NCBI GenBank assembly: GCA_964016885.1
Contig: OZ024766.1
Coordinates: 2,480,001 to 2,544,000 of the forward strand
From: Eledone cirrhosa
Lineage: Eukaryota
Direction: 5' to 3'
DNA length: 64,000 nucleotides
Part shown: one piece after another, positions 10,770 through 42,680 of the stretch
Layout of the letters: every line of letters begins with the position of its first letter
Position numbering within the stretch: the stretch's first letter is position 1
The notes under the pieces: generated by a model
Told to the model about the DNA's origin: nothing
Database searches by the model: none
What the model saw: the letters and a program-made list of their open reading frames with translations, nothing else
Position numbers and translations under genes: made by a program

Positions 10770-10840
10770 TGTTTTATCTGATGAAAACACAAATATTATT
10801 GCTTGATGATGATTGTTTTTGAAATGCGCATAATAAAATA
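10770..10840 (+). ncRNA. Type I hammerhead ribozyme motif (family F)
   Basis: Stem I tgttttat/ataaaata; CUGAUGA at 10778-10784; long stem II; GAAA at 10821-10824; palindromic UGCGCA; predicted cleavage after AUA at 10832. Confidence 0.7.
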
Positions 10841-10870
10841 TATGGAACTCCTTTAACCATCTTTTGATCT

Positions 10871-10913
<43 letters not shown>

Positions 10914-10931
10914 TGTATAATATGTAATTAA

Positions 10932-10964
<33 letters not shown>

Positions 10965-11235
10965 ACTGCGTTATACACACACATATATATATATATACAC
11001 ACACACACAGGAGCCTTGTTACAGCGGTGTACCAGGACACAAGTCACCCTCCCTTTTGCAGGAACAGGGGGGGGGGGGGACAAACCATCTTTTGTTTGAC
11101 ATAAATTCTTTTGAAACTTATTTTTATATATATATATACACACATATGTGTATGTATGTATGTATGTATATGTATGTGTGTGTGTGTGTGTGTGACGAAA
11201 CTTAAGTCAATTGCATGAACTCATCCTTTATTTAC

Positions 11236-11287
11236 TGCTATATATATTTCGATGATAGCCATTGATTGGCTATGACCTCATCAGGCA
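11236..11287 (-). ncRNA. Type I hammerhead ribozyme motif
   Basis: Minus strand reads ugc CUGAUGA ggucauagcca-aucaa-uggcuaucauc GAAA uauaua UA^ gca. Stem I is short (3 bp). Confidence 0.6.
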
Positions 11288-11367
11288 CTTAGTCAGTTCT
11301 TAGATATGCCAGCTCTGTCTTTATGGTGTTGATGATATCAGAGCCTTGACACCCACACACCACACAC

Positions 11368-11555
11368 AGGAACGAGTAGGACCCCGACGGCTGAGCTCAA
11401 GCCGTTTCGACGGCTAATTCAGTCCAGAATTAGCCGTCGAAACGGCTTGAGCAGCCGTCGGGGTCCTACTCGTTCCTATTACCCACTCTACTACCCTAAG
11501 TATTGAGTACTTTGGTGCGTTATGGTCCACCTGGTTCCTTACCACATTTCCTTCG

Positions 11556-11556
<1 letters not shown>
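11368..11556 (+). mobile_element. Palindrome-plus-tail element, family A (copy 2)
   Basis: Arms 11368-11420 and 11427-11477, then tail attacccactctactaccctaagtattgagtac...ccttcgt ending in (TA)n. Confidence 0.8.
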
Positions 11557-11630
<74 letters not shown>

Positions 11631-12109
11631 AATCCAATTTAAGAATATATATATTTAAGAATCCAATTCAATAAATAGACCAGGATTTTTTTTCATTCTG
11701 ATGATTGAAAGCAACATTTTTTGCTTTTAAGAAACCACTGGTAAATGGAATAATTGCCTTATGTTGTTTATTACATAACTATATATATATATATATATAT
11801 ATATACTAAATGTGAAGACTAAAATCCAAAGAGGGTTCGATAAGGATAAATATATAAGAACTGTAGAGCAAATATTTATTAAAATAACTTCAATAAATAC
11901 TCACACACACAATGAATTATTATAAGACATCCAAACTTCGGGAACTCCGTCACCTCGGGCCACTAAACTCTATTCCTTGCTTTAATTAGTTATACTCCCC
12001 CGCCTACCTAAATTACTTTCTCAATTAATTATTTTAAATGAAATTTGGCTCCAATTTATTTTCACGTGTAGAATTAAACCATGTGGATAATTTCCCATTT
12101 CAAAACTGA

Positions 12110-12365
12110 GATAAACCTCCGGTAATTTCCGTATAAACCTCTGGTAATTTCCGTATAGACCTTCGGTATTCTCCGTATAGACCTTCGGTATTCTCCGTAT
12201 AGACCTCCGGTATTCTCCGTATAAACCTCCGGTATTCTCCGTATAAACCTCCGGTATTCTCCGTATAAATCTCCGGTATTCTCCGTCGGTAATGTCCGTG
12301 CAAATCTCCGGTATTTTCCGTATAAACATCCTGTAATCTCCGTGTAAACCTCCGGCAATCTCCGT
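12110..12365. repeat. 22-bp minisatellite
   Basis: Unit ccgtataaacctccggtattct, ~11 copies. Confidence 0.85.
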
Positions 12366-12719
12366 AATGTGTATGTATGTCAGTTTAGATAAAACAGCAG
12401 TTCAGCTCCCATCACATTTAACTCTTTATCGTAATTTTCTCAATGTGTGTGTGTGTATATATATATATATGTGTATATATGTGTGTGTATGTGTGCGTGT
12501 GTGTATGTGTGCGTGTGTGTGTGTATATATATATATGTGTATATGTGTGCTTTCACCAGATAAAATATAATACAGATTAGTTTTATAAATATGTATGTGT
12601 GTGTATGTGTATATATATGTATGTGTGTATTTGTGTGTAAGTATGTATATATGTGTATTTGTGTGCGCATATGTATATATGTATGTGTATATATATGAAT
12701 ATGAGGGTATATATATGAA

Positions 12720-13430
12720 TGAGGGTGTATATGTATATATGTGAGTGTATATGTATATATGTGAGTGTATATGTATATATGTGAGTGTATATGTATATAT
12801 GTGAGTGTATATGTATATATGTGAGTGTATATGTATATATGTGAGTGTATATGTATATATGTGAGTGTATATGTATATATGTGAGTGTATATGTATATAT
12901 GTGAGTGTATATGTATATATGTGAGTGTATATGTATATATGTGAGTGTATATGTATATATGTGAGTGTATATGTATATATGTGAGTGTATATGTATATAT
13001 GTGAGTGTATATGTATATATGTGAGTGTATATGTATATATGTGAGTGTATATGTATATATGTGAGTGTATATGTATATATGTGAGTGTATATGTATATAT
13101 GTGAGTGTATATGTATATATGTGAGTGTATATGTATATATGTGAGTGTATATGTATATATGTGAGTGTATATGTGTATATGTGAGTGTATATGTGTATAT
13201 GTGAGTGTATATGTGTATATGTGAGTGTATATGTGTATATGTGAGTGTGTATGTGTATATGTGAGTGTGTATGTGTATATGTGAGTGTATGTGTATATGT
13301 GAGTGTGTGTGTATATGTGAGTGTGTGTGTATATGTGAGTGTGTGTGTGTATATGTGAGTGTGTGTGTGTATATGTGAGTGTGTGTGTGTATATGTGAGT
13401 GTGTGTGTGTATATGTGAGTGTGTGTGTGT
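12720..13430. repeat. 20-bp minisatellite grading into GT/AT microsatellite
   Basis: Unit gtgagtgtatatgtatatat. Confidence 0.95.
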
Positions 13431-13599
13431 ATATGTGTATATATGTGTGTGTGTGTGTGTGTGTGTATGTGTGTGTATATGTATATATATATATATATTT
13501 TTTTTTCTTCATAACATTTTGTATACATACATTGTTAATGGTGTAGACTTAAATTATTGGAGAAATTCTCCATGTTTGATTTCCAAACACATTCGGTTA

Positions 13600-13784
13600 T
13601 CTCCGTAATTAGTCAATTTAGTATGTCGGGCCTTTGTCCCCTCTCCCAGGTTTTCTTGATAACTTTCTAAATAATTATTTCTGAATGAAATTTTACCCAG
13701 ATACATTTTTACATTTGTAGAATAAAAAATATAATTTACCGTGTTAAATATCACAACAACCTCCGGTAATCTCCGTCATTTGTA

Positions 13785-13827
<43 letters not shown>

Positions 13828-14840
13828 GGAAAAAATGAAACGAAATTTCATTTCCCACTCTTAGTACGGCTGTTACTTAAATATAAGTATGTATACGTAC
13901 ATACATATATGTATACAGACGTACAGTAGTATGTATATATATATATATACATACATGCACACACATATATATATGTACGTATGGATTCACCGAACATTTA
14001 TTATAATGCTCGGTGTGTTTGTAAACAAACATCCGTATATATATGTAAAGTTAAACCTAACTACATTTTCTTCATAACTTTAATAATTAATATTTCTGAA
14101 TGAAAATTTAGATTTATTTTCACATGTGTAGAATAAAACTATAATTTCCCGTGTTAAATATCACAACAACCTCCGGTAATCTCCGTCATTTGTATATATG
14201 TATATAAAGTTAAACCTAACTACATTAATTTCTTGATAACTTTCTTAATATTTTTTAATGAAATTTTACACGGATATATTTTTACATGCGTAGAATAAAA
14301 ATATAATTTCCCGTGTTAAATATCACAATCTCCGGTAATCTTCGTCATTTGTATATATGTAAGGTTAAACCTAACTTCATTAATTTCTTGATAACTTTCT
14401 TAATTAATATTTCTGAATGAAATTTTAGTTATATTTTCACATGTATAGAATAAAACTATAATTTCCCGTGTTAAATATCACAACAACCTCCGGTAATCTC
14501 CGTCATTTGTATATATGTATATAAAGTTAAACCTAACTACATTAATTTCTTGATAACTTTCTTAATATTTCTGAAGGAAATTTTACACAGATATATTTTC
14601 ACATGTATAGAATAAACTATAATTTCCCGTGTTAAATATCACAATAACCTCCGGTAATCTCCGTCATTTGTATATACGTATATAAAGTTAAACCTAACTT
14701 CATTAATTTCTTGATAACTTTCTTAATTAATATTTCTGAATGAAATTTTACAGATATATTACATTTGTAGATTTAAAACTATTTAATAATATTTCCTGTT
14801 GACAATCATAACCATCTCCGGTAATCTCCGTATAACAATT
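13600..14840. repeat. Degenerate ~160-bp tandem repeat
   Basis: Recurring tttcccgtgttaaatatcacaacaacctccggtaatctccgtcatttgtatat...gttaaacctaac near 13740, 14150, 14310, 14465 and 14625; shares the ctccggtaatctccgt core with the 22-bp array. Confidence 0.8.
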
Positions 14841-15060
14841 TTCCGTCATCAGCATAACTCGGCTTTTTCTCCATAACTTTCATAATTGAAACTTAACAGA
14901 AATAGATGTGGCGTGGTTATTAGGTTAGCTGTGCATTTCACCCCTCCGGAGGGTCGATAAATAAAGTACCAGTAATGCACTATAGTCGTCGATTTAAGCG
15001 ACCTCCCACCCCTCAAATTGCTGGCCTTGTGCCTAAAGTAGAAACACGGATGTAATTTTG

Positions 15061-15128
<68 letters not shown>

Positions 15129-15307
15129 CCCCCACTCTCAACCGCCGAGGTTGACTTTGCCTTTCATCCTTACAGGGTCGATAAAATAAAGTACCAGTAA
15201 TGCACTGGGTAATTGCTGGCCTTGTGCCTAAAGTAGAAACAATTATATATGTATATATGTATATATATTATTCAAAATATTAATAAATGAAGACATTCAC
15301 ATCAATG

Positions 15308-15370
15308 TTTTATTATATATATTTCGGAGGTACTGTGCTGTTTTTTTCAGTACGTCCTCGTCAGATAAAA
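15308..15370 (-). ncRNA. Type I hammerhead ribozyme motif
   Basis: Minus strand reads uuuuau CUGACGA ggacguacug-aaaaaaacagca-caguaccucc GAAA uauaua UA^ auaaaa. Perfect 6-bp stem I and strong stem II. Confidence 0.75.
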
Positions 15371-15451
15371 TACATGAATTGATGTATGACATACCTCAAC
15401 TGTATTCATGGTTCCATTTCGGTCTGCCAAGATATCTGTATATATATATAT

Positions 15452-15655
15452 AGGAGAAAGTATGACCCCGACGGCAGAGCTCAAGCCGTTTTGATGGCTA
15501 TTTCTGGATTAAGTCTTTAGTTCAGAAATAGCCGTCGAAACGGTTTGAGCTCTGCTGTTGGGGTCATACTTTCTCCTATTACCCACTCTACTACCCTAAG
15601 TATTGAGTACTCTGGTGCGTTATGGTCCACCTGGTTCCTTACCACAACTCCTTCG

Positions 15656-15656
<1 letters not shown>
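15452..15656 (+). mobile_element. Palindrome-plus-tail element, family A (copy 3)
   Basis: Arms aggagaaagtatgacccc.../...ggggtcatactttctcct, same tail as the other copies, flanked by (TA)n. Confidence 0.8.
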
Positions 15657-15687
<31 letters not shown>

Positions 15688-15689: not shown

Positions 15690-15900
15690 TTTTAATATAG
15701 ATGAGATTCTACAGGAGTAGAACTGTTTCATTCTTCAGAAATCATCAGTAAAGGCTTTACCTCACATAATTCCTGATGATTTCTGAAGAATGAAACGGTT
15801 CTAGTCCTGTAGAATCTCATCTATATTAAAACCTTTATACTCTGCTATGTATTGAGTACCTTACTTACTGTGGTTACCTCCGATTCAACCCGGAATAACG
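15688..15900 (+). mobile_element. Palindrome-plus-tail element, family D, with a truncated hammerhead-like core
   Basis: ~60-bp arms ggttttaatatagatgagattctacagg...atcatcag and ctgatgat...catctatattaaaacc; tail tatactctgctatgtattgagtacc; right arm has CTGATGA...GAAAC...GTC but no 5' strand of stem I. Confidence 0.75.
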
Positions 15901-18754: not shown

Positions 18755-18796
<42 letters not shown>

Positions 18797-19810
18797 CCCA
18801 TCTCTCCCTCTCCACCTTCACTCTCATCTCCTCCCCCCTTTTTTTCATCCTTTCCACCCCACCCTCCCTAAATAAAATATTTTTTCCTCGCACATATCCT
18901 CCCTTCGTTAATTTTCAAAATTTTTAATTTATACAGTATCTTCCAACGGTTTTCAACCCCTCTATGTAAAAAATATATCTCCTCTCAGTTATAAAAACTA
19001 TCTCTTTCTCTCTATCACCCATCTCTCCCTCTCATCTCCTTCCCTTTTCATCCTTCTCCCCCCCCCCTCTCTAAATAAAATATTTTTCCCAATATCACAC
19101 ATCAATCTAAAACCACTTTTCATATGTTGATTTAAAACTGCACTATCAACAAGTGTTTTTTAGCCTTCATATCATGTTCTCCTGTTTTATCTGATGAAAA
19201 CACAAATATTATTGCTTGATGATGTTTGTTTTTGAAATGCGCATAATAAAATATATGGAACTCCTTTAACCATCTTTTGATCTTATATTATGCATACTCC
19301 AGTCCCACAAACTGTAGAGTGCTTCTTATCCGATATCTGCATTGCTTTATTGTACTACAATAAAACTCACCTCCTACATTATATATATATATATATATAT
19401 ATACGATATTAAACAAATGGAAACTACATTTATAAAACCATATTTATTTCATTATATATATTTCAGGGATATCATATTAAAAATATGGTATGCCCTCTTC
19501 AGACAAAATACAATTAAGGTATGTCAAATTTATTTATAAAACTGTTTATATATTGTATTTTGTCTGAAGAGGGCATACCATATTTTTAATATATCCCTGA
19601 AATATATATAATGAAATAAATATGGTTTTATAAATGTAGTTTCCATTTGTTTAATATCGTAAAATACTCCAAAACCTGTTGAGTGCTTTTATATCAGTTA
19701 TAAAATATTTACTCGTTGTAACCCAACAATTTTAAATAAAACTTTTGCATATGTATATATATATATATATACTCCATTATATATATATATACTCCATTTT
19801 TTTATATATA

Positions 19811-19848
<38 letters not shown>

Positions 19849-22800
19849 CAAATGGAAACTATATTTATAAAACCATATTTATTTCATTATACATATTTCA
19901 AGGACACCATGTTAAACTATGGTGTGCTTTCATCAGACAAAATACAATATAGATCAGTTTTATAAATAAATATTGACATACCCTTAAAAAATGCAACCAT
20001 TACCGGGATCTTCCAACAGTAATGGTTGCTGGCCTTGTGCCTTAATCAAATACCATTATTTGGTCAATAAAGCAAAGTACCAGTAATGCGCTGGAATAAT
20101 TGCTGGCCTTGTGCCTTAATCACACCGTTATTTGGTCAATAAAACAAAGTACCAGTAATGCGCTGGGGGTTGATTTGACTTTCCGCTCCCCCAAATTGCT
20201 GGCCTTAATGAGACGCCATTGTTATTTCAGTGCCAAAGAGAAAGAAGAGCCTGCTTGTGATAGTAAACCCAGTAAGTGGCAGAAAGAAGGGGCTGAAGGT
20301 GTTCAACAGTATACTGCCATTGCTCCAGCTGGCCAATATTAAGACTGAATTGTTTGGTAAGTTGAGCTATGGTTTGTCAATGTACTGGTTGTGGCGGTGG
20401 TTGTGGTTGTTGTGGTGTGGTGTTGTGGTGTGGTGCTGGTGTGGTGGTGGTGGCAGTGCTGGTGGTGGTGTTGTAGTGGTGGTGCTGCGGTGGTGGTGGT
20501 GCTGTTGTGGTGGTGGGCAGTGGTGGTGCTGTTGTGGTGTTGTTGTTGTTGTGGTGATGGGTGGTGGTGTTGTTGTTGTGGTGGTGGTGTACATTATAAT
20601 CATGAAACCAACACTAGGAAGGTTGTCATGTCCTTGACACAACTGAAGGGTCCTACTAACCCTTTATTTATTACCATCATTTCCCTTGCTAGCAGGGGTT
20701 GGCCAGACCATCACACACCCAAGTCAGTTGGAAGTAGTGACCAGGTCGCACTGAAGATGGGCCATATGGTTGCATCTTCCTAACAGATGTGCCCAGATTT
20801 TACAGAGGGTACCTGGTGTATTTTATTGTAGCACCAACACTAGGGAGGCTGTCATGTCTTTGACGCAGCTGAAGGGTCCTCCTGGCCCTTTATTCAGCAG
20901 GTTTTCTACATTGATTACTAGTTATTATTGGCTCTCTTATTTCCAGTAACCAAGAAGAAAGGAGATGCTACAGAACTGTTCAAAGACAAAGACCTCTCGC
21001 CTTTTGACGGGTAAGTTGGCCTCTTTCTTTCTTTCTCTCTCTCTTCCTTTCTCTCTCTCTCTCTTCCTTTCTCTCTCTCTCTCTTCCTTTCTCTCTCTTC
21101 CTTTCTCTCCCTCTCTTCCTTTCTGTTTCTCTTTCTTTCTCTCCCTCTCTTCCTTTCTCTCTTTCTCTTTCTTTCTCTTCCTTTCTCTCTTTCTCTTTCT
21201 TTCTCTTCCTTTCTCTTTCTTTCTTTCTCTTCCTTTCTCTCTTTCTCTTTCTTTCTCTCCCTCTCTTCCTTTCTCTCTCTCCCTCTCTTCCTTTCTCTCT
21301 CTCTTTCTCTCCCTCTCTCTCTCACTCAATACCCAGCCAGTTTCATGAGTGCTGCAAAGTCTGAGACCTATTCTCGGAGGAAGTGTCTGCGCAGTCCAGT
21401 CCATCCCACATGCTGTACACCCACTCAGAAGCAGGTGTAGAGAAGTTCATGAATGATGGAGGGCAGGAGGCTGAATTAAGTGCAAGAACTGCAGGAGTTG
21501 GTGCAGCAATGCAGCAGCTTCAGTATCTGGTAATCGGGAGGGAGGTGTAAAAAGCCAAACTCGCTATCTTCAATTTGGTATTCGTGCCAACCCTTACCTA
21601 TGATCGTGAATCTTGGGTAATGACAGAAGGAATATGATCGTGAACACATGTAGCCAAAATGGGTCCCTCTAAAGGGTCTTTGGGGTAACATTACTTGATA
21701 GAATGCACAGCTCGGAGATCAGAGAGTTACTCCAGGTAGAGCTGCTACTTCTCTGAATTGAGATATCACAGCTCGGGTGTTATGGATATGTGGTTAGCAT
21801 GTCTCAGGAAAGAATCACTGGGGAATCATTCCAGGTAGAGCCACTATTTCTCTAAATTGAGATATCACAGCTCGGGTGTTATGGACATGTGGTTAGAATG
21901 TCTCAGGAATGCTAATGTTGCCCTAAAAAAAACGTCGGACACGAGACAAAACATTCAGATTTACCTCAGATGACGGGCGCTATCTCAATTGCATCCTACA
22001 ACAGGGAATTTTTTGGGAGAAAGGGAGAGTTGATTAAATCAACTCCAGTGTGTTACTGGTACTCTGTTTTTCATCCTTACAGGGTCGATAAAATAAAGCT
22101 AACCTCAGCAGGATTTGAACTTGGAATGTAAAGTCTTAATAACAAAATATTGGGGGTTTCTGTGGACTTGGTCGGCTCTATGCACAACGATGGGATCACT
22201 GGCTTAGGGTGATCCCAGCCTCGTTGAGCAAGAGGAAAATTTAGACACGAGGCTAACAATTTTGGGGAAGGGAAAATCGATTAAATCAAACTCAGTGTAT
22301 TACTGGTACTTTATATTATTGAGCCTGTGAGGATGAAAGGCAAGGCTACCCTTGGCAGGATTTCAATTCAGAATGGAAAGGGTCGTAATTAAAATAATCT
22401 AAACTATAATTGTTTCTACTTTAGGCACAAGGCCAGCAATTACCCCAGTGCATTACTGGTACTTTATTTTATCGACCCAGTAAGGATGAAAGGCAAAGTT
22501 AACCTCGGCGGGATTTGAACTCGGATCGTAAAGGGACGTAACTCTGCTGGAAAGCATGGCGTCCGACCTAACGATACTGCCAATCCATCGCCGTTTAAAA
22601 TAATCTAAACTATAATGATGATGATGATGATGATGATGATTTGTTTGTTCTATTTGCAGTGTTGTACTTGTTGGTGGTGATGGGACGTATTACGAAGTGT
22701 TAAATGGACTGCTCACCCAAGCTCAGAATGCTGCCAAGTATGACTTAAACCTACCTGCCACTGAATGGAAGCCGAGTCCTCTGCCTGTTGGTATAATACC

Positions 22801-25800
22801 TAGTGGTAAATATCTCTTTTATATATAACATATCATATACAGGAGGTCCTCAACTTACATACGTCCCAAGGGGCCGTTAGTTGATTTGTTCCAAGTTGAT
22901 TTGTTCCAGTAAGACCATATATGGCTCATTGATACTGCGGGTTTATATATATATATAGACGCTCGCTCTCTCTCGCTCTCTCGCTCTCTCGCTCTCTCGC
23001 TCTCTCGCTCTCTCTCTGGCGAGTAAAATTCCCGAGATCCATGGACGAGTTCTCTCCAGCGGTCTCTGTCCCTCATTATCGCTGCCATGTCCTGCGTCTC
23101 CAACAGACCAGTCTCTGTCCCTCATTATCGCTGCCATGTCCTGCGTCTCCAACAGACCAGTCTCTGTCCCTCATTATCGCTGCCATGTCCTGCGTCTCCA
23201 ACAGACCAGTCTCTGTCCCTCATTATCGCTGCCATGTCCTGCGTCTCCAACAGACCAGTCTCTGTCCCTCATTATCGCTGCCATGTCTTGCGTCTCCAAC
23301 AGACCAGTGTCTGACTTTAGGGCATCAACCAACGTTAACCTTGGTCTTCCCCTTCCCGGGCCCGAGGATAGGAAGAGGAAATGGCTGGTCCGAGTTAGGA
23401 CCCTACTAGGAGAGCCACCCTCCACGGCCCAGGGCACTGGGGAGATCAGGCGACAGTTTGAAGAACTGGATATTGAAACAGAGCCCTTCACCAGAGAGGA
23501 GCTTCAGAGAGCCAAGATCAAGGAGGGCAAGGCTCATGGAGAAGATTACAGGGTTGATAAAATAAAGTACCAGTAATGCACTGGGGTAATTGCTGGCCTT
23601 GTGCCAAAAGTAGAAACAATTATAATTTTTTTTTTTTTTTTTTTTTTTTTCTATTATCCAGGTACAGGAAATGGTATTGCTGAGTATTTGGTGAGTAAAG
23701 ACCCAGTGACAGCAACGCTTGCCATCATCATAGGTATGGTCTACTATCATGTTTGGTTACAGAGGGAGGGACTAGGTGTGGTCTACTATTGTTTGGTTAC
23801 AGAGGGTGGGACTAGGTATGGTCTACTATTGTGTTTGGTTACAGAGGGAGGGACTAGGTGTGGTCTACTATTGTGTTTGGTTACAGAGGGAGGGACTAGG
23901 TGTGGTCTACTATTGTGTTTGGTTACAGAGGGAGGGACTAGGTGTGGTCTACTATCGTGTTTGGTTACAGAGGGAGGGACTAGGTATCGTCTACTGTCGT
24001 GTTTGGTTACAGAGGGAGGGACTAGGTATGGTCTACTGTCGTGTTTGGTTACAGAGGGAGGGACTAGGTATGGTCTACTGTCATGTTTGGTTACAGAGGG
24101 AGGGACTAGGTATGGTCTACTATCGTGTTTGGTTACAGAGGGAAGGACTAGGTATGGTCTACTATCGTGTTTGGTTACAGAGGGAGGGACTAGGTATGGT
24201 CTACTATCGTGTTTGGTTACAGAGGGAGGGACTAGGTATGGTCTACTGTCATGTTTGGTTACAGAGGGAGGGACTAGGTATGGTCTACTGTCATGTTTGG
24301 TTACAGAGGGAGGGACTAGGTATGGTCTACTGTCATGTTTGGTTACAGAGGGAGGGACTAGGTATGGTCTACTATCGTGTTTGGTTACAGAGGGAGGGAC
24401 TAGGTATGGTCTACTATCGTGTTTGGTTACAGAGGGAGGGACTAGGTATGGTCTACTGTCGTGTTTGGTTACAGAGGGAGGGACTAGGTATGGTCTACTG
24501 TCATGTTTGGTTACAGAGGGAGGGACTAGGTGTGGTCTACTATCGTGTTTGGTTACAGAGGGAGGGACTAGGTATGGTCTACTGTCGTGTTTGGTTACAG
24601 AGGGAGGGACTAGGTATGGTCTACTGTCATGTTTGGTTACAGAGGGAGGGACTAGGTATGGTCTACTATCGTGTTTGGTTACAGAGGGAGGGACTAGGTA
24701 TGGTCTACTGTCGTGTTTGGTTACAGAGGGAGGGACTAGGTATGGTCTACTGTCATGTTTGGTTACAGAGGGAGGGACTAGATATGGTCTACTGTCGTGT
24801 TTGGTTACAGAGGGAGGGACTAGGTATGGTCTACTGTCATGTTTGGTTACAGAGGGAGGGACTAGGTATGGTCTACTATCGTGTTTGGTTACAGAGGGAG
24901 GGACTAGGTATGGTCTACTATCGTGTTTGGTTACAGAGGGAGGGACTAGGTATGGTCTACTATCGTGTTTGGTTACAGAGGGAGGGACTAGGTATGGTCT
25001 ACTGTCATGTTTGGTTACAGAGGGAGGGACTAGGTATGGTCTACTATCGTGTTTGGTTACAGAGGGAGGGACTAGGTATGGTCTACTGTCATGTTTGGTT
25101 ACAGAGGGAGGGACTAGGTATGGTCTACTATCGTGTTTGGTTACAGAGGGAGGGACTAGGTATGGTCTATCATGTTTGGTTACAGAGGGAGGGACTAGGT
25201 ATGGTCTACTGTCATGTTTGGTTACAGAGGGAGGGACTAGGTATGGTCTACTATCGTGTTTGGTTACAGAGGGAGGGACTAGGTATGGTCTACTGTCATG
25301 TTTGGTTACAGAGGGAGGGACTAGGTATGGTCTACTGTCATGTTTGGTTACAGAGGGAGGGACTAGGTATGGTCTACTGTCATGTTTGGTTACAGAGGGA
25401 GGGACTAGGTATGGTCTACTGTCATGTTTGGTTACAGAGGGAGGGACTAGGTATGGTCTACTGTCATGTTTGGTTACAGAGGGAGGGACTAGGTATGGTC
25501 TACTGTCATGTTTGGTTACAGAGGGAGGGACTAGGTATGGTCTACTGTCATGTTTGGTTACAGAGGGAGGGACTAGGTATGGTCTACTGTCATGTTTGGT
25601 TACAGAGGGAGGGACTAGGTATGGTCTACTGTCATGTTTGGTTACAGAGGGAGGGACTAGGTATGGTCTACTGTCATGTTTGGTTACAGAGGGAGGGACT
25701 AAGTATGGTCTACTGTCGTGTTTGGTTACAGAGGGAGGGACTAGGTATGGTCTATCATGTTTGGTTACAGAGGGAGGGACTAGGTATGGTCTACTGTCAT

Positions 25801-28800
25801 GTTTGGTTACAGAGGGAGGGACTAGGTATCGTCTACTGTCATGTTTGGTTACAGAGGGAGGGACTAGGTATGGTCTATCATGTTTGGTTACAGAGGGAGG
25901 GACTAGGTATGGTCTACTGTCATGTTTGGTTACAGAGGGAGGGACTAGGTGTGGTCTATCATGTTTGGTTACAGAGGGAGGGACTAGGTATGGTCTACTG
26001 TCATGTTTGGTTACAGAGGGAGGGACTAGGTATCGTCTACTGTCATGTTTGGTTACAGAGGGAGGGACTAGGTATGGTCTATCATGTTTGGTTACAGAGG
26101 GAGGGACTAGGTATGGTCTACTGTCATGTTTGGTTACAGAGGGAGGGACTAGGTGTGGTCTATCATGTTTGGTTACAGAGGGAGGGACTAGGTATGGTCT
26201 ACTGTCATGTTTGGTTACAGAGGGAGGGACTAGGTATGGTCTACTATCATGTTTGGTTACAGAGGGAGGGACTAGGTGTGGTCTATCATGTTTGGTTACA
26301 GAGGGAGGGACTAGGTATGGTCTACTGTCATGTTTGGTTACAGAGGGAGGGACTAGGTATGGTCTACTGTCATGTTTGGTTACAGAGGGAGGGACTAGGT
26401 ATGGTCTATCATGTTTGGTTACAGAGGGAGGGACTAGGTATGGTCTACTGTCATGTTTGGTTACAGAGGGAGGGACTAGGTATGGTCTACTGTCATGTTT
26501 GGTTACAGAGGGAGGGACTAGGTATGGTCTACTGTCATGTTTGGTTACAGAGGGAGGGACTAGGTATGGTCTACTGTCATGTTTGGTTACAGAGGGAGGG
26601 ACTAGGTATGGTCTACTATCATGTTTGGTTACAGAGGGAGGGACTAGGTGTGGTCTACTGTCATGTTTGGTTACAGAGGGAGGGACTAGGTATGGTCTAC
26701 TGTCATGTTTGGTTACAGAGGGAGGGACTAGGTATGGTCTACTGTCATGTTTGGTTACAGAGGGAGGGACTAGGTATGGTCTACTATCATGTTTGGTTAC
26801 AGAGGGAGGGACTAGGTGTGGTCTACTGTCATGTTTGGTTACAGAGGGAGGGACTAGGTATGGTCTACTGTCATGTTTGGTTACAGAGGGAGGGACTAGG
26901 TATGGTCTACTGTCATGTTTGGTTACAGAGGGAGGGACTAGGTATGGTCTACTGTCATGTTTGGTTACAGAGGGAGGGACTAGGTATGGTCTATCATGTT
27001 TGGTTACAGAGGGAGGGACTAGGTATGGTCTACTGTCATGTTTGGTTACAGAGGGAGGGACTAGGTATGGTCTATCATGTTTGGTTACAGAGGGAGGGAC
27101 TAGGTATGGTCTACTGTCATGTTTGGTTACAGAGGGAGGGACTAGGTGTGGTCTATCATGTTTGGTTACAGAGGGAGGGACTAGGTATGGTCTACTGTCA
27201 TGTTTGGTTACAGAGGGAGGGACTAGGTGTGGTCTACTGTCATGTTTGGTTACAGAGGGAGGGACTAGGTATGGTCTACTATCGTGTTTGGTTACAGAGG
27301 GAGGGACTAGGTATGGTCTATCATGTTTGGTTACAGAGGGAGGGACTAGGTATGGTCTACTGTCATGTTTGGTTACAGAGGGAGGGACTAGGTGTGGTCT
27401 ACTGTCATGTTTGGTTACAGAGGGAGGGACTAGGTATGGTCTACTATCGTGTTTGGTTACAGAGGGAGGGACTAGGTGTGGTCTACTGTCATGTTTGGTT
27501 ACAGAGGGAGGGACTAGGTATGGTCTACTGTCATGTTTGGTTACAGAGGGAGGGACTAGGTGTGGTCTACTGTCATGTTTGGTTACAGAGGGAGGGACTA
27601 GGTATGGTCTACTATCATGTTTGGTTACAGAGGGAGGGACTAGGTGTGGTCTACTGTCATGTTTGGTTACAGAGGGAGGGACTAGGTATGGTCTACTGTC
27701 ATGTTTGGTTACAGAGGGAGGGACTAGGTATGGTCTACTGTCATGTTTGGTTACAGAGGGAGGGACTAGGTATGGTCTACTGTCATGTTTGGTTACAGAG
27801 GGAGGGACTAGGTATGGTCTACTATCATGTTTGGTTACAGAGGGAGGGACTAGGTATGGTCTACTATCGTGTTTGGTTACAGAGGGAGGGACTAGGTATG
27901 GTCTACTATCATGTTTGGTTACAGAGGGAGGGACTAGGTATGGTCTACTGTCATGTTTGGTTACAGAGGGAGGGACTAGGTATGGTCTATCATGTTTGGT
28001 TACAGAGGGAGGGACTAGGTATGGTCTACTGTCATGTTTGGTTACAGAGGGAGGGACTAGGTGTGGTCTATCATGTTTGGTTATGCAAGCGATAAATGGC
28101 TGGCTACTAATATGCAAAGCCGGGCATTTATCGCTCGTATTTATTGCTGATATGCAAATCTGGCTGGTCAGTCAGTCTGCTGATATGCAAATCAGGCTGA
28201 TCAGTCAGTCTGCTGATATGCAAATCTGGCTGGTCAGTCAGTCTGCTAATATGCAAATCAGGCTGATCAGTCAGTCTGCTGATATGCAAATCTGGCTGCT
28301 CAGTCAGTCTGCTAATATGCAAATCTGGCTGGTCAGTCAGTCTGCTGATATGCAAATCTGGCTGGTCAGTCAGTCTGCTGATATGCAAATCTGGCTGGTC
28401 AGTCAGTCTGCTGATATGCAAATCTGGCTGGTCAGTCAGTCTGCTGATATGCAAATCTGGCTGATCAGTCAGTCTGCTAATATGCAAATCAGGCTGATCA
28501 GTCACTGTGTATTTCAGAAAATATCATATATTTTCACTAGCTCTGACAGTTTGGCAGGTGAACAGTGAGCTGTACTGATGAAGGGCAATACCCAGAAACA
28601 TTAGTGTCTGCAGTTCTGTTTACATGCCAACACAAGAACAAGAATGAAGGGTTCATTCTACTGACATGGCTATAAAATTGAGGCTTGTTTGCATAATTGC
28701 AAACGAATCGAATGTTATTAATATTCGAAAAAACTCTGATTACATTTATTGTATTCAGCTATGTAGAGTGAAATTTTCTTATCTCTCGCTCTCGCTCTCG

Positions 28801-32100: not shown

Positions 32101-35100
32101 GTAGTAGTAGTAGTAGAAGTAAATGTCCAGTTTTTCCAATGGTAAGGTTTGGCACAAATGCTATATTGAAGATAGCTAGTTTGTCTATTACACCTACCAC
32201 CCTTCTTCTGACAATTGAATGTTGAAGCTGGAACATTACTGCACCAGCTCCAGCAATTTTTCCACTTAACCCTTCACCATTTACATTACTCTATATATAC
32301 TATTGTATTTTCACAGTAAAGGCTTTACCTCACATAATACCTCACATAACATTTACATTACTCTATATATACTATTGTATTGTCACAGTAAAGGCTTTAC
32401 CTCACATAATACCTCACATAACATTTACATTACTCTATATATACTATTGTATTGTCACAGTAAAGGCTTTACCTCACATAATACCTCACATAACATTTAC
32501 ATTACTCTATATATACTATTGTATTGTCACAGTAAAGGCTTTACCTCACATAACATTTACATTACTCTATATATACTATTGTATTGTCACAGTAAAGGCT
32601 TTACCTCATATAATATCTCGCATAACATTTACATTACTCTATATATACTATTGTATTTTCACAGTAAAGGCTTTACCTCACATAATACCCCACATAACAT
32701 TTACATTACTCTATATATACTATTGTATTTTCACAGTAAAGGCTTTACCTCACATAATATCGCACATAACATTTACATTACTCTATATATACTATTGTAT
32801 TGTCACAGTAAAGGCTTTACCTCACATAATATCTCGCATAACATTTACATTACTCTATATATATATATATATAAGTGTGTGTGTGTGTGTGTGTGATCAT
32901 TTTATTTTATATTTTTTTCCTCTGCCTTTTCCTTTTTTTTTTCTTTTATAGTGAGATTGATGCCGATCAACTGTCGACTACTGAGGTGAAAGGGGAGGTA
33001 ACTGGTGAGAACATGAGTGAAGCAGGCTTGGGAGTGGAACCTAAGTGGAGTGAGAGCACGACTGAAGATCAGGCTGGAGAAGAGGTGGCTGTTAATAAGG
33101 ATGGTGTCCAAAGTGGAGACCTCGCTATGGCCACCAGCGACGGCCGTTCACCTGTGACTCAGGACAGATCTGTTGATACACCATCTAAAGAAGCTGAGAC
33201 TGCTCAGGACAGATCTGTTGATACACCATCTAAAGAAGCTGAGACTGCTCAGGACAGATCTGTTGATACAGCGTCAAAAGAAGCTGAGACTGCTCAGGAC
33301 AGATCTGTTGATACACCGTCTAAAGAAGCTGAGACTGTTCAGGACAGATCTGTTGATACAGCGTCTAAAGAAGCTGAGACTGCTCAGGACAGATCTGTTG
33401 ATACAGCGTCTAAAGAAGCTGAGACTGCTCAGGACAGATCTGTTGATACAGCGTCTAAAGAAGCTGAGACTGCTCAGGATAGATCTGTTGATACAGCGTC
33501 TAAAGAAGCTGAGACTGCTCAGGACAGATCTGTTGATACAGCGTCTAAAGAAGCTGAGACTGCTCAGGACAGATCTGTTGATACAGCGTCTAAAGAAGCT
33601 GAGACTGCTCAGGACAGATCTGTTGATACAGCGTCTAAAGAAGCTGAGACTGTTCAGGACAGATCTGTTGATACAGCGTCTAAAGAAGCTGAGACTGCTC
33701 AGGACAGATCTGTTGATACACCGTCTAAAGAAGCTGAGACTGTTCAGGACAGATCATTTGATACACCGTCTAAAGAAGCTGAGACTGTTCAGGACAGATC
33801 ATTTGATACACCGTCTAAAGAAGCTGAGACTGTTCAGGACAGATCATTTGATACACCGTCTAAAGAAGCTGAGACTGTTCAGGACAGATCATTTGATACA
33901 CCGTCTAAAGAAGCTGAGACTGTTCAGGACAGATCTGTTGATACACCGTCTAAAGAAGCTGAGACTGTTCAGGACAGATCTGTTGATACACCGTCTAAAG
34001 AAGCTGAGACTGTTCAGGACAGATCTGTTGATACACCGTCTAAAGAAGCTGAGACTGTTCAGGACAGATCTGTTGATACACCGTCTAAAGAAGCTGAGAC
34101 TGCGCAGGACAGATCTGTTGATACAGCGTCTAAAGAAGCTGAGACTGCTCAGGACAGATCTGTTGATACACCGTCTGGTACTTCTGTTGAGACTTCTAAA
34201 GAAGCTGAGGCTGCTGCTACTGACATCTGTCAAGGGAATGTAACTAAAGGTTTGTATGTCAACTTAGTTTATTTTTCTCCTACTGATGTTGGACTGTAAG
34301 ATGGTCGGTAGTGAAGGGAACAGAAGGGCGGTGGCGGAGGAGTGAACAGATGGAGGGGGGGGGAGAAAATACTTGGTCTTGAAAATTTTGTTCTTACAAT
34401 TACTGTTAAGTACCAGTCACACACTGGGGTCAATTTAATCGACTCCCCCCCCCCCCAAAAAAAAAAAATTGCTGGCCTTGTGCCTATATAAGAAAGCATT
34501 GTTACTGTTAAGGGGGAGTTTTCCCACTGTTCATCTCTCGTTTTATTGACATTCTGCTAGACCGGGGACAGTCGATAACGGGGGCTGATTTAGGCACAAG
34601 GCCAGTAATTTGTGGGGGGAGGGCGAAAATCGATTGAATCGATCCCAGTGCATTACTGGTACTATATTTTATCGAAGGAAACAGTTCTAGTCCTGTAGAA
34701 GCCATTTCTGTATTATATATATATATATATATATATTTGTTTGTGGAGGCATGTGGCTGAGTGGTAAGATAAATATGCATGTGTAGTGTTTGTACCAGAG
34801 TGTTCAAGTCGCTGGCTGGACTGAAAAGTCACACTCGTTCAGCGCATCGGTAGGGGTTCTCCTACATGGATATAAAGTAGTGGCCGTACTCGAAAACGAG
34901 TTGGCAGCCACCATATATATAGATGTATGTATATATATTTATATATATACGAATATATATATTTATATACATATAGTAATAATAAATATGAAGACTAAAA
35001 TCCAAAGAGGTCTCGATAAAGATAAATATATATCGAATACATATATATATATATATGTATGCATGTATATATGTATGTATGTACGTACATATGTATATAT

Positions 35101-39900: not shown

Positions 39901-41742
39901 TCCTGGGACAGAGAATCAAACTCTATACCCACACAATATCATTTCTCTCACTACTTATGGTATTGGTGTACACTGCTTTCCTTTTGATTGGTATCTTAAT
40001 GATACTAGTTTAATTAAAACACCGATGCTGGTGACACAACAAAAGGCACCCAGCTCACCCTGTAAAGTGGTTGTGCTGGTGACACAACAAAAGGCACCCA
40101 GCTCACCCTGTAAAGTGGTTGTGCTGGTGACACAACAAAAGGCACCCAGCTCACCCTGTAAAGTGGTTGTGCTGGTGACACAACAAAAGGCACCCAGCTC
40201 ACCCTGTAAAGTGGTTGTGCGCTGGTGACACAACAAAAGGCACCCAGCTCACCCTGTAAAGTGGTTGTGCTGGTGACACCCTGTATATGTGTGTCTGTGT
40301 GTGTACATCATGGTGTATATGTGGAGGGTCGAAAATAAAGTACCAGTAATACAATGGGTCAGTTAAATCGACTTTCCCTTCCCCTTCAATTTACTGGTGT
40401 TGGTGGATTGGCAGTATCGGTAGAGGGTCAGACACCATGCTTTCCAGCATGGAGTTACGTCCCTTTAGATCTGAGTTCAAATCCTGCCGAGGTTAACTTT
40501 GCCTTTCATCCTTACTGGGTCGATAAAATAAAGTACCAGTAATGCACTGGGGTAATTGCTGGCCCTGTGCCTAAAGTAGAAACAATTATTCTTTGTGTGT
40601 GTGTGTGATATTAAATAAATGGAAACTATATTTATAAAACCATATTTATTCTATTATATATATTTCAAGGGTACCAAAACTTTGGTACGCTCTCATCAGA
40701 TAAAATACAAAGTTTTGTTTTATAAATACTGACATATCCAGGAATGATGAGAGCGTACCAAAATTTTGGTGCCCTTGGAATATATATAATAGAATAAATA
40801 TGGTTTTATAAATATAGTTTCCATTTATTTAAAATCATTGTATATTATACTCCAGAAAACCTGTTGGGTGCTTCGAATCAGTTATAAACATATATATTTG
40901 TTGAATTACCAACAAATTAAATATCTCTCTATATATATATTAAATAAATAAATAAAATAAAATAATAATAAAAAAAAAAAAAAAAAATAAATATACACGG
41001 GTGTGTATGATTGTGTATAGAAGATTATATTAATAAGAGGAATTCCAACTTTGTCTGATTTACTCGTTTTATTTACAATCCTTAAAATTTATAATGGTAT
41101 TATAATGAAATAGTATGATAGAATATTAAATGTTAAGTGTTAATTGAACAAGTACTTTCATACTTTCGCAGTTTTCAGGTTCATAATGTGTGGTGACAGT
41201 CAAATATATATAAATAATATAAAATCTAAAGATGGTTAAAAGAGTTCCATGTATTTTATTATGTGCATTTCAAAAACAAATATCATCATGCGATGATATT
41301 TGTTTTTGAAATGCGCATAATAAAATACCTGGAACTCTTTTAACCATCTTTTGATTTTATATTATTTATACTCCAGTCCTATAAACTGTTGAGTGCTACT
41401 TATCCGATATTTGCATTGCTTTATTGTGCTACAATAAAACTCACCTCCTACATTATATATATAATGTGCATTGCCCTATGTACTGTACATGCACTTTTTT
41501 GATGAGTTGTGGTGCACCTGGGCACTGTACACAATATTTCATTATTATTATATCATGACTCATACACTGTTCATTTTCCTGACATTGGTACATTATTCTA
41601 TGTACTATACATGCACCTTTGATGAGTTGTAGTGCACCTGAGCACTGTACACAATAATTTCATTATTATTATATATATATAATCTTTTCATTCTGTAATC
41701 CATAGCTTCCAAGTTGGATTAATTTCTCTGTTTTGTTGTTGA
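17851..41742 (+). CDS. Ceramide kinase-like lipid kinase (DAGK/sphingosine kinase family), 12 coding exons, 2673 nt, ~890 aa
   Basis: Manual GT-AG model with consistent phases: 17851-17983, 18552-18740, 20231-20356, 20947-21010, 22660-22805, 23662-23733, 29266-29415, 31714-31879, 32952-34249, 38592-38743, 39662-39801, 41706-41742. Motifs [34 protein letters not shown]...LGVLRY and NCDGE occur in the order known for CERK/SphK. Confidence 0.85.
18552..18740 (+). CDS. CERK-like coding exon 2 ([10 protein letters not shown]...INGLVHS), putative PH-like region
   Basis: tatttcag acceptor, t|gtaagt donor, open frame in phase 1-1. Confidence 0.7.
19183..19253 (+). ncRNA. Type I hammerhead ribozyme motif (family F), sense strand of the kinase intron
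   Basis: uguuuuau CUGAUGA aaacacaaauauuauu-gcuu-gaugauguuuguuuuu GAAA ugcgca UA^ auaaaaua; predicted cleavage after 19245; tail tactccagtcccacaaactgtagagtgc...ctcctacat then (TA)n. Confidence 0.75.
19445..19510 (-). ncRNA. Type I hammerhead ribozyme motif (family G, left arm)
   Basis: Minus strand reads uauuuugu CUGAAGA gggcauaccauauu-uuu-aauaugauaucccu GAAA uauaua UA^ augaaaua. Confidence 0.65.
19556..19618 (+). ncRNA. Type I hammerhead ribozyme motif (family G, right arm)
   Basis: CUGAAGA at 19564-19570, GAAA at 19599-19602, UAUAUA, UA^ at 19610; stem I uauuuugu/augaaaua; stem II has a small deletion. Confidence 0.6.
19880..19944 (-). ncRNA. Type I hammerhead ribozyme motif (family G)
   Basis: Minus strand reads uauuuugu CUGAUGA aagcacaccau-aguuuaac-augguguccuu GAAA uaugua UA^ augaaaua. 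Confidence 0.7.
20231..20356 (+). CDS. CERK-like coding exon 3 ([21 protein letters not shown]...TELF)
   Basis: DAGK-catalytic C1 motif NPxSG; tttcag acceptor, g|gtaagt donor. Confidence 0.9.
20947..21010 (+). CDS. CERK-like coding exon 4 ([22 protein letters not shown])
   Basis: ttccag acceptor, gg|gtaagt donor, 64 nt. Confidence 0.85.
21360..21910 (+). mobile_element. Degraded RTE-type LINE fragment (post-RT region)
   Basis: Disrupted translation [34 protein letters not shown]...[11 protein letters not shown] resembles an RTE ORF2 C-terminal region. Confidence 0.55.
22411..22594 (-). mobile_element. tRNA-derived SINE with ~22-bp target-site duplication
   Basis: Minus strand has box B gagttcaaatccc, then gactttgcctttcatcc...gtcgataaaataaagtaccag-type core; TSD ttaaaataatctaaactataat at 22389-22410 and 22595-22616. 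Related copies near 30-110, 14905-15245, 22020-22390, 34400-34672, 38005 and 40400-40590. Confidence 0.85.
22660..22805 (+). CDS. CERK-like coding exon 5 ([19 protein letters not shown]...PVGIIPS)
   Basis: ATP-binding GGDG motif; tttgcag acceptor, g|gtaaat donor; not in the ORF track. Confidence 0.92.
23020..23547 (-). mobile_element. RTE-type LINE 3' end with internal 49-bp tandem amplification and an inverted 5' piece
   Basis: Minus strand [39 protein letters not shown]; plus-strand piece [27 protein letters not shown] (pre-RT-like) at ~23460-23547. Confidence 0.65.
23662..23733 (+). CDS. CERK-like coding exon 6 ([24 protein letters not shown])
   Basis: Poly-T tract plus ccag acceptor; g|gtatgg donor. 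Confidence 0.88.
23731..28082. repeat. 42-bp (39-bp variant) minisatellite, ~104 copies, intronic
   Basis: Unit taggtatggtctactgtcatgtttggttacagagggagggac; source of three >1400-aa pseudo-ORFs. Confidence 0.97.
28144..28504. repeat. 33-bp minisatellite, ~11 copies, each with ATGCAAAT
   Basis: Unit gctgatatgcaaatctggctggtcagtcagtct. Confidence 0.93.
28567..28616 (+). ncRNA. Type I hammerhead ribozyme with GUC cleavage triplet, sense strand of the kinase intron
   Basis: gagcugua CUGAUGA a-ggg-caaua-ccc-a GAAA ca-uuag-ug UC^ ugcaguuc; 8-bp stem I (two G-U); predicted cleavage after 28608; A-A at the base of stem II. Confidence 0.75.
28850..29136 (-). mobile_element. tRNA-derived SINE (second family)
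   Basis: Minus strand ggaggcacatggcttagtggttagagc (box A)...tgtgaattcaattc...tccttgagcaaggcactttatttcac; plus-strand copy at ~42170-42400. Confidence 0.75.
29266..29415 (+). CDS. CERK-like coding exon 7 (GKQQEMTTY...[27 protein letters not shown])
   Basis: C4-type motif GYGF.SD...LG..RY; tacag acceptor, g|gtaggt donor. Confidence 0.9.
29447..30137. repeat. 79-bp minisatellite, ~9 copies
   Basis: Unit ttctatgaaacaaaaatacccattttaaaggcttcatatttagccctttataaaccaaccctgccaaaagtagctctgg. Confidence 0.92.
30308..31007. repeat. 39-bp minisatellite, ~18 copies
   Basis: Unit agggtttgtagcaaaggtttctgttacgctacatgggct. Confidence 0.95.
31714..31879 (+). CDS. CERK-like coding exon 8 ([22 protein letters not shown]...KPDDN)
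   Basis: Pyrimidine tract plus cacag acceptor, ag|gtaaga donor; phase 1 to 2 fits both neighbours. Confidence 0.8.
32278..32860. repeat. 72-bp minisatellite, second array
   Basis: Same unit as 16653-17593. Confidence 0.93.
32952..34249 (+). CDS. CERK-like coding exon 9, 1298 nt, acidic insertion with a 45-bp coding repeat (QDRSVDT[A/P]SKEAET[A/V] x ~22)
   Basis: Strong pyrimidine tract plus atag acceptor in phase 2; aag|gtttgt donor in phase 1; unique coding-like flanks; exons 8 and 10 are out of phase without it. Confidence 0.75.
34782..38003. repeat. Complex direct and inverted duplication of LINE-end and unique segments
   Basis: Direct: ~34782-35625 versus ~36489-37255. Inverted: ~35550-36150 versus ~37260-37852, and ~34803-34955 versus ~37852-38003. 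Confidence 0.85.
38005..38560 (+). mobile_element. SINE followed by ~5 tandem 80-bp copies of its 3' tail
   Basis: gagttcaaatcccgccgagg..., then repeats of gggttgataaaataaagtaccagtaatacactgggataattgctggccttgtgcccccaaaagtagaaacaattattaca. Confidence 0.85.
38592..38743 (+). CDS. CERK-like coding exon 10 ([12 protein letters not shown]...KVLCLSK)
   Basis: W..+.G.+ motif of SphK/CERK after the insertion loop; ttag acceptor, aag|gtaaaa donor. Confidence 0.8.
38940..39505. repeat. 46-47-bp minisatellite related to the 48-bp array
   Basis: Unit cactgtaaggtggttgtgctggtgtcatgacaaaaggcacccattcc[ag]; related array at 40026-40280. Confidence 0.9.
39662..39801 (+). CDS. CERK-like coding exon 11 (...[20 protein letters not shown])
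   Basis: C5 motif NCDGE; acceptor after a poly-T tract (alternative in-frame start 39671); tg|gtgagc donor. Confidence 0.88.
40607..40925 (+). mobile_element. Palindrome-plus-tail element, family G
   Basis: Arms ~40607-40697 and ~40746-40836; tail tactccagaaaacctgttgggtgc... Confidence 0.8.
40647..40707 (-). ncRNA. Type I hammerhead ribozyme motif (family G)
   Basis: Minus strand reads uauuuuau CUGAUGA gagcguaccaaa-gu-uuugguacccuu GAAA uauaua UA^ auagaaua. Confidence 0.75.
41209..41453 (+). mobile_element. Palindrome-plus-tail element, family F (both arms truncated inside hammerhead stem II)
   Basis: Arms 41209-41287 and 41292-41370; tail matches 19296-19380. Confidence 0.8.
41706..41742 (+). 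CDS. CERK-like last coding exon ([12 protein letters not shown])
   Basis: catag acceptor in phase 2; resembles the CERK C-terminal strand; TGA at 41740-41742; AATAAA at 41959. Confidence 0.65.
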
Positions 41743-42449
41743 CGTGGAAACCTGAGACTTTCTGGGAACAGCAGCAGCGAGTAAAAACAACCCCAACACG
41801 ACCATCTACAAAACCAACTTGTCTACACATTTAACTACTCCCCCTCCCCGTTAATATTTGCCTCTGTTATAAAACCTTTATATATTTCTTTATAGAATAT
41901 TTTTGTTATATATTTTCATATCTTTGTTATCCACAAACACTGTTTTGATATATTGCTAAATAAAATAGTTACAATTATGAGTTTTCTTATTTTTATATGT
42001 ATTTAAATACACTCTTCATCTCGATCAGACATCATAGTTTTATTTTTATTGTAGCTATGATTAGCTCGCTATTTAGGCAGACACCACAGCTTCAGGTCCA
42101 CTATCCCATTATTTTATTTTGTTTTCTTTCATCCTTCTATCTGTGTTGTATGTTTTATCACATACACATGGAGGCACATGGCTTAGTGGTTAGAGCATTG
42201 GGTTTGCAATCGAAAGGTTGTGAGTTCAATTCTCAGACCGGGTGATGTTGTTTCCTTGAGCAAGACACTTTATTTTTCACATTGCTCCAGTTTACTCAGC
42301 TGTAGTAATGATATGGACTGGGGTCCATATCATTCCACTGCAAAGTGGACGTGGAGGTGCCACGGGGAAAAAAAAAGCACCCAGCCCACACTGTAATGTG
42401 GACGTGGAGGTGCCATGGGGGGACTGGTGTAATTTCTTAAAAGGTTTCT

Positions 42450-42680
42450 TATACTATAATTTCAATGACCGGGTTCAGTATGAATCCGGTGACATCATCA
42501 GGTATTCAAAATATAACAAAGGAATATAATAGACAAAATCCATGGGGCTGAAAATCAGACAAGAGGACGGCCGACCATTTAGCAGCTTCTAGCCCGGTCG
42601 GCTGCCCTTGTTATATTTTGAATACCTGATGATGCCACCCGAGTTATACTAAATCCGGTCACTGAAATGATTATAGTATA
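42450..42680. mobile_element. Palindromic element with a hammerhead-like motif (42622-42679, +)
   Basis: Arms 42450-42522 and 42606-42680; auac CUGAUGA ... GAAA ugauua UA^ guau; base of stem II is imperfect. Confidence 0.6.

Follow-up and report, generated by a model that had tools for sequence, protein, structure and literature searches.

The window, a 64,000-nucleotide stretch of Eledone cirrhosa contig OZ024766.1 (positions 2,480,001 to 2,544,000, forward strand), is part of a 3.0-Gb genome. Arrays of C2H2 zinc-finger genes occupy each end, and the middle is TA-rich DNA filled with repeats. Hammerhead ribozyme motifs in this DNA were sorted into nine repeat families (A-H and K). The features, with motifs named by core position and strand, were as follows.

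634-6320 and 44740-64000: tandem C2H2 zinc-finger gene arrays
6649-6700, minus strand: hammerhead outside the range of the first-pass annotation, core 6690, helix III TGCA
10290-10478, 11370-11560 and 15450-15660: copies of a different short TA-associated repeat that contains a long GC-rich hairpin and has no hammerhead core
10714-10878, plus strand: family D, minimal 3' end of 165 nt, core 10778, helix III TGCGCA, predicted cut after 10832
11192-11348, minus strand: family E, solo 3' end, core 11284, G10.1-C11.1, helix III TATATA, predicted cut after 11239
11654-11780, plus strand: family K, solo 3' end, core 11698, helix III CCACTGG, predicted cut after 11743
15265-15430, minus strand: family F, solo 3' end, core 15364, predicted cut after 15314
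15690-15835, both strands (15773+/15748-): two back-to-back arms that carry the core letters CTGATGA...GAAA and are rejected by the descriptor
18792-19381, plus strand: family D, 5'-truncated copy of about 590 nt (3' UTR, hammerhead, tail), core 19191, predicted cut after 19245
19402-19752, both strands: family A insertion, inverted and direct arms back to back, then a 100-nt tail
within it, minus strand: A inverted arm, core 19502, predicted cut after 19453
within it, plus strand: A direct arm, core 19564 with 3 nt lost from helix II, predicted cut after 19610
19842-20003, minus strand: family B, solo 3' end, core 19936, helix III TATGTA, predicted cut after 19888
20212-20358 and 22640-22825, plus strand: two exons with DAGK_cat matches (Pfam)
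28085-28780, plus strand: family G, monomer of a 437-nt non-coding head-to-tail unit, core 28575, predicted cut after 28608
32875-34299, plus strand: 474-aa open frame with a 15-aa repeat
40605-40930, both strands: family C inverted pair, intact motif on the minus strand (core 40699, predicted cut after 40655)
41204-41463, both strands: D-type inverted pair, junction inside helix II, so that both arms lack CUGAUGA
42421-42680, both strands: family H inverted pair, U10.1.U11.1; in 42501- helix III is reduced to TTA, and 42626+ is mutated
42962-43498, plus strand: broken LINE-like reverse transcriptase (RT) fragment (Pfam RVT_1), unrelated to the Hydra-type ORFs described below

The zinc-finger arrays contain a 4165-bp unit in three near-exact repeats (53304, 57469 and 61599 region), and no descriptor hit fell in the array at 44740-64000. 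The DAGK_cat exons presumably belong to a ceramide or sphingosine kinase-type gene, the limits of which were not found when 104 of the 129 listed frames, plus two added, were scanned. Insertions of D, A and B lie within 1.5 kb upstream of the first of these exons. The 474-aa frame is perhaps an exon of an unannotated gene, and we take the RT fragment, by its look, to be an RTE-type LINE. The pair at 15690-15835 is possibly a decayed or variant family; pairs resembling it were also seen in loci L240, L243 and L251. A tblastn search found no Penelope-like ORF within the window.

Core, helices and folding of the motifs

A type I descriptor requiring the core (CUGANGA, GAAA), helices I-III and UH gave 11 hits in the region 9800-43500, 5 on the plus strand and 6 on the minus strand. 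All ten cores named by the first-pass annotation were found in place, and the descriptor accepted nine of them; 42626+, already described there as weak, was rejected because of its mutated helix II. Three motifs that had gone unnamed were added, 11698+ and 42501- in the region and 6690- outside it, the last having a related motif in an arbitrary stretch (L256). Cuts that had been predicted after 10832, 19245 and 28608 agreed exactly with the descriptor, and the cleavage triplet was indeed mostly AUA (9 of 11, the exceptions being GUA at 11698+ and GUC at 28575+). Helix III was palindromic in 7 of the 11 (TATATA in 5, TGCGCA in 2). Shuffled sequence gave means of 0.003 hits when the whole region was shuffled and 0.01 when 500-nt blocks were, with a maximum of 1 (300 shuffles each). 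Six decoy cores gave no hits in the window or in 39 arbitrary stretches.

Covariation was assessed in 24 motifs chosen by core letters only, which avoids circularity, from 39 arbitrary 10-kb stretches. Helix I positions 1-4 paired in 96-100% of these, helix II positions 2, 3, 5, 6 and 7 paired in 96%, and the helix III loop was palindromic in 83%. Position 3 of helix II paired in 96% compared to 45% after shuffling; given the common ancestry of the copies, such shuffle values are not probabilities. With one motif per cluster (9 clusters), position 3 still showed G-C, U-A and A-U pairs. The earlier observation that helix II varies while keeping its pairing stands; pairing was kept, in varied pair types, without being demanded. 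At helix II position 4, a C opposes C or U in 9 of 9 clusters and is never paired, while its neighbors covary. The closing pair G10.1-C11.1 occurs only in E and F among the nine families; the others have G.U (A, C), A-U (B, D), U-A (K), U.U (H) or A.A (G). A U.U at 10.1-11.1 is listed for Hydra motifs in the available part of one study (PMC8557442) and described as tolerated in that of another (PMC3088659). At least 11 additional clusters, each represented by two or more copies, were present among all loci, and in several of them the 10.1-11.1 pair is U.U or C.A. Second core-like strings (CTGATGAAA...TTGAAA) were also seen in 3' UTRs (L250 4927, L238 2785, L248 4809 and 7123, and L251 6490); they fail the descriptor and may be relic or variant hammerheads.

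Folding in isolation gave no strong signal for any of 12 motifs (z from +0.96 to -2.67), and the monomer hammerhead fold lay 4-9 kcal/mol above the best fold in 11 of the 12. Only the family K motif, 11698+, had the monomer hammerhead as its minimum-energy fold. Palindromic helix III loops were computed to pair as an 8-bp duplex, and the A, C and H inverted pairs are predicted to form long hairpins (-114 to -162 kcal/mol).

Genome-wide counts were made with a pattern for one subtype, CTGANGANNNC-N14-34-YNNN-GAAA-TRNNYA-TA, which had 105,348 exact matches compared to 10 for a reversed control. Approximately 96% of the subtype matches carry C at helix II position 4. Matches with another base there numbered 4,810 (control 151), and many of those listed are point mutants of the same families. 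The descriptor found 46 motifs, a few of them probably false, in 389,400 arbitrary bases, from which raw extrapolation gives 354,000 motifs (bootstrap 215,000-515,000); 22 of the sampled motifs match the subtype pattern, indicating that the sample is 1.6-fold high, and the calibrated total is approximately 220,000 motifs of all types.

These data bear on whether the motifs could be chance matches in AT-rich, TA-repeat DNA. The TATATA loops do look like TA background, the folding z-scores are weak, and the Rfam search that had been proposed as a check returned 106 matches at E<=5, none of them to a hammerhead family. Such a reading is scarcely credible against 11 hits where shuffles gave 0.003-0.01, 105,348 genome pattern matches where the reversed control gave 10, and 96% pairing at five helix II positions for which no pairing rule was set; we regard it as refuted by the shuffles, the reversed-pattern control and the rule-free helix II pairing. 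Judged by core and helices, the window motifs are confirmed as real minimal type I hammerheads.

Repeat families and the elements behind them

The suggestion that several sequence families were present was borne out by the nine repeat families. First-look genome DNA searches, with 40 candidates scored for each family, returned 1229 candidates for A, 496 for B, 813 for C, 154 for D, 220 for E, 765 for F, 1977 for G, 2008 for H and 1488 for K, figures that are not copy numbers. Best-copy identity was 94-99% except for F and H (80-91%). In the window, the D copy at 18792-19381 is 98.5% identical to L237, the B copy at 19842-20003 is 98% identical to L232, and the A arms are 97-99% identical to the pLTR of an intact element (L291), the pair being predicted to form one long hairpin of -162 kcal/mol. 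The plus-strand arm of the C pair (from 40745) lacks C3, has GGAA instead and then runs into the tail. The G copy has a short helix II, a GUC triplet and an expanded internal 33-nt repeat (28145-28504).

Each family has two fixed 3' ends, at about +100 and +200 from the core (the K reference is too short for the second). Per family, 23-29 of the 24-29 loci have a TA run after their 3' end, as do 18 of 20 loci for G, compared to a background of 0.32, in agreement with the TA association first described. Between the two 3' ends, a tail motif, ACUC...GU(U/A)GAGUGC, was recognized by eye in A, C, D, E, F and H, with variants in K and G; by regular expression it was found in 1-28 loci per family compared to a background of 0.009. 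Among 185 non-focal copies, the 5' start lay upstream of the core in 127, inside it in 29 and downstream in 23. Only 6 of the 185 started within 3 nt of the cut, about the number expected from an even spread, which argues that the inserted templates were uncut or religated. An inverted partner was present in 6-19 loci for seven families, in 0 of 29 for E and in 5 of 20 for G, and same-strand repeats were present in 0-4 of 24-29 loci per family. In H, the inversion is found repeatedly at a strong hairpin that lies upstream of the core, and its junctions vary; a fixed two-headed H master is not favored because copies are unlike one another in junction letters and in spacing (125-141 nt). Judged from sequence, the window copies are short, 5'-truncated, often inverted, independent 3'-end insertions at TA repeats.

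Family A led to intact elements. One followed A locus had hammerheads 3783 bp apart around an ORF for RT and a putative endonuclease, plus an inverted third copy. A protein search with family A gave 150 scored matches at 94-100%, and 4 of 8 long-frame loci examined (L291, L292, L295 and L296) had an unbroken ORF between two pLTR hammerheads. In full family A elements the pLTR hammerheads are 3724-3892 bp apart. The L291 motif is identical to 19502- of the window. The first-pass annotation had offered Penelope-like pLTRs as background for such motifs, and family A ORFs between hammerhead-bearing pLTRs substantiate that link.

The intact ORF of family A encodes 741 aa, and named relatives of the element protein came from Argonauta hians. 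Predicted with 74 homologues, the family A fold had a pLDDT of 90 (the single-sequence fold, at pLDDT 33, was unusable), and its best structural match was telomerase TERT (E 6e-10). YRDD is present in 75 of 75 aligned rows. RWR lies at 37, in an RW(K/R) column with K in 43 and R in 17 of 75 rows, DKT at 120, CNCRDRSKC (CxCX5C) at 600, CDLC at 698, E at 704 and CRH at 725; across the 75 aligned rows these motifs are conserved. YVG and the later E are kept in 65-68 of 75 rows, Pfam gave no GIY-YIG match, and the fold matches listed are polymerases; the putative C-terminal endonuclease is thus assigned by motifs. Pfam returned no RT or endonuclease family for ORF pieces, five homologues and a 651-aa frame. 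A sequence search of solved structures returned nothing for one protein and, with the protein alignment as query, a best E of 0.024 (retron RT). The available part of a study of Penelope-like elements gives RWK, DKT in place of DKG, a CxCX5C linker, and CxxC and CxH around E as marks of the Hydra clade (PMC8557442, section 11). By these motifs the element ORFs appear to be Hydra-type; the Neptune clade was dropped because DKT and CxCX5C fit Hydra.

Other families were tied to ORFs in fewer loci. ORF traces occurred in 2-6 of 20-30 short loci per family, some of them only neighbors. Chance neighbors do occur, since the ORF adjacent to B in L233 is unrelated; it and the ORF beside H in L245 were set aside. 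The links retained were ORF-to-UTR for C (L235/L236, 91.6% over 2.4 kb) and D (L237/L238, 95% over 1.7 kb), an upstream ORF with 83% DNA identity to family A for B (L232), and, in one locus each, two direct pLTRs flanking ORF remains for E (L239) and a 1-kb UTR joined to an inverted ORF piece for F (L244). For K there were two loci; in L327 the putative endonuclease region lies upstream of a K-type motif, at a distance of 290 nt, and L328 has an inverted piece. No ORF link was found for H in L283, L290, L329, L330 or L331. Coverage by other copies was 29 at the hammerhead and dropped to 1-6 across the ORF. These data suggest that seven of the nine families (A-F and K) belong to coding Penelope-like elements, whose 3' ends they represent.

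Family G differs. L250 carries two complete G hammerheads in tandem, 437 nt apart, with a longest frame of 48 aa, and head-to-tail read-through from 3' end to start was seen in 8 of 20 G loci. G is the only non-autonomous family among those assigned, and was likely moved by Penelope-like machinery. In the parts of the literature on metazoan non-LTR retrozymes available (PMC7761336; bioRxiv 10.64898/2026.07.22.740005), the unit is likewise non-coding and head-to-tail with one type I hammerhead, but it measures 150-300 bp compared to 437 nt for G, and G occurs mostly as monomers or partial tandems with inversions and a tail, in the insertion style of Penelope-like elements. A retrozyme-like family absent from the window was seen in L272 (G000:C11:15000001-15010000), where positions 455-3365 hold seven tandem hammerheads with a period of about 482 nt, U.U closing and a CTAG loop.

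Origin and activity of the window copies

Three accounts of the copies were weighed. If most families were non-autonomous retrozymes spreading as small circular RNAs, the non-coding tandem unit of G would fit, H may be similar, copies spanning the cut site would fit a religated circular template, and the array of seven hammerheads with a 482-nt period in L272 would be a separate example. Against this, seven families extend into kilobase UTRs and ORFs, and same-strand repeats are as rare as reported above (0-4 loci per family). We consider this account unlikely for most families, and the first-pass view of a mainly non-autonomous system of ribozyme-bearing elements is not supported, as seven of nine families are tied to ORFs, G alone is a non-coding tandem and H is unlinked.

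The copies could instead form an array kept by the host to cut or control the transcript of the lipid-kinase gene or of the zinc-finger arrays. Two DAGK_cat exons do lie nearby on the plus strand, and there is a local 3-8-fold excess of motifs. However, hundreds of dispersed copies resemble those of the window at 86-99%, the window copies lie on both strands (5 plus, 6 minus), and there is damage in helix II of 19564+, in helix III of 42501- and in the C arm, as well as a D pair lacking its cores. A role of this kind is very improbable. The excess itself is modest, and the density claimed at first is upheld only to that extent. The region has 11 motifs in 33.7 kb, whereas 389 kb of arbitrary DNA has 46 (bootstrap P 0.034, with region bounds drawn after the fact); it is 3-8-fold denser than average (bootstrap P 0.009-0.034, again with bounds chosen afterward) and has 9 subtype-pattern matches where 1.2-1.9 are expected. 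The whole window has 12 motifs in 64 kb, and both neighboring 10-kb stretches have none. TA content of the region is not above average and so does not account for the excess, nor does simple random insertion account for it fully. The idea of a local system gives way to one of independent insertions of genome-wide families, given the exact subtype matches across the genome.

Taken together, these data lead us to hold with considerable confidence that at least seven Hydra-type Penelope-like families carry these type I hammerheads in their 3' ends, as does the non-coding G in its unit, and that the lone copies are likely inert. In the available part of the work on a Poseidon element, two internal RT start sites, uncut RNA as the main substrate and protein-assisted cleavage are described (PMC11167929), and elsewhere weak hammerhead cleavage with a requirement for dimers is described (PMC4209133). 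The ends and 5' starts found here agree with the Poseidon data, and by analogy the Poseidon scheme may extend to the Hydra elements here. The element protein would bind its own RNA near the conserved tail motif and nick TA-repeat DNA. Reverse transcription would start at one of two internal sites and copy through the uncut hammerhead, usually stopping 45-90 nt upstream of the core, and frequent fold-back of the copy would produce the inverted arm. In full elements the ribozyme is likely slow and conditional, needing a palindromic helix III dimer or help from the protein, and its cutting would trim tandem or read-through transcripts. Lone copies have no partner on their own strand, and inverted pairs would be trapped in their long hairpins; both are likely inert, but as the K monomer fold comes at no cost, not every lone copy need be.

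A more speculative proposal, to which we give little weight, is that Hydra-type hammerheads are a protein- or dimer-gated subclass, with the unpaired C and the tail motif as a switch read by the element's own RT protein. If it were true, more than 100,000 intact copies would be latent cut sites in host transcripts, fired in trans upon expression of an element, and the inverted pairs would be a large source of double-stranded RNA.

Comparison with known systems

The element class and its ribozymes are already known, which makes the window itself ordinary. The scale, the shared tail motif and the C.Y mismatch at position 4 of helix II were not found in the literature searched, although the mismatch may already be in Luense 2017, Arkhipova 2017 or the supplement figures of Cervera 2014. 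The families are likewise new to the literature searched (octopus hammerheads, the mismatch and Hydra work) and may be catalogued in Repbase or Dfam. The main text of a 2026 curated repeat study of Octopus vulgaris, as far as it was available, makes no mention of ribozymes. Counts per genome in the accessible portions of published work are about 2,000-9,000 minimal hammerheads, and 14,255 retrozymes for axolotl. The count of one subtype here, 105,348 or more motifs with an intact core, is approximately 10 times as high. Young intact elements, sister families and a non-coding passenger offer natural covariation for the question of what hammerheads do in Penelope-like elements, and the C.Y mismatch and tail motif are specific, mutable RNA features.

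The closest relatives, on the parts of the paper available, are the Hydra-clade elements, including Hydra-1_Obim of Octopus bimaculoides (Craig et al. 2021, PMC8557442). These share a single ORF with RT and a C-terminal endonuclease (putative here), RW(K/R), DKT, the CxCX5C linker, CxxC and CxH, the TA target, a hammerhead near the 3' end and an inverted 5'-truncated copy. The end of the published Hydra-2_Amil sequence has, by eye, a stretch resembling the tail motif. In contrast, the listed Hydra-1_Obim hammerhead differs by eye from all nine families here. Hydra elements also tend to be less than 3 kb with a tail of 30-40 nt, whereas the unit here is 3.7-3.9 kb, with a 1.3-kb 3' UTR and a tail of about 100 nt. 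By eye, the listed Hydra rows show neither perfect 6-nt palindromic helix III loops nor the helix II C.Y mismatch.

Known minimal hammerheads, as described in the portions of the literature available, also have a long helix II, a palindromic or minimal helix III and predicted dimer cleavage, and occur mostly as dispersed single motifs of truncated elements, and also as opposite-strand pairs 100-700 bp apart. The families here differ in having G10.1-C11.1 only in E and F and in mostly lacking an extra base after A9. Poseidon PAc of Anolis (Frangieh et al. 2024, PMC11167929, in its available part) appears alike in its two internal RT starts giving the tail, its AT-rich target and its uncut RNA template. 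It belongs to another clade, and in it hammerhead and start codon overlap; in the elements here the start codon comes approximately 240 nt downstream of the core.
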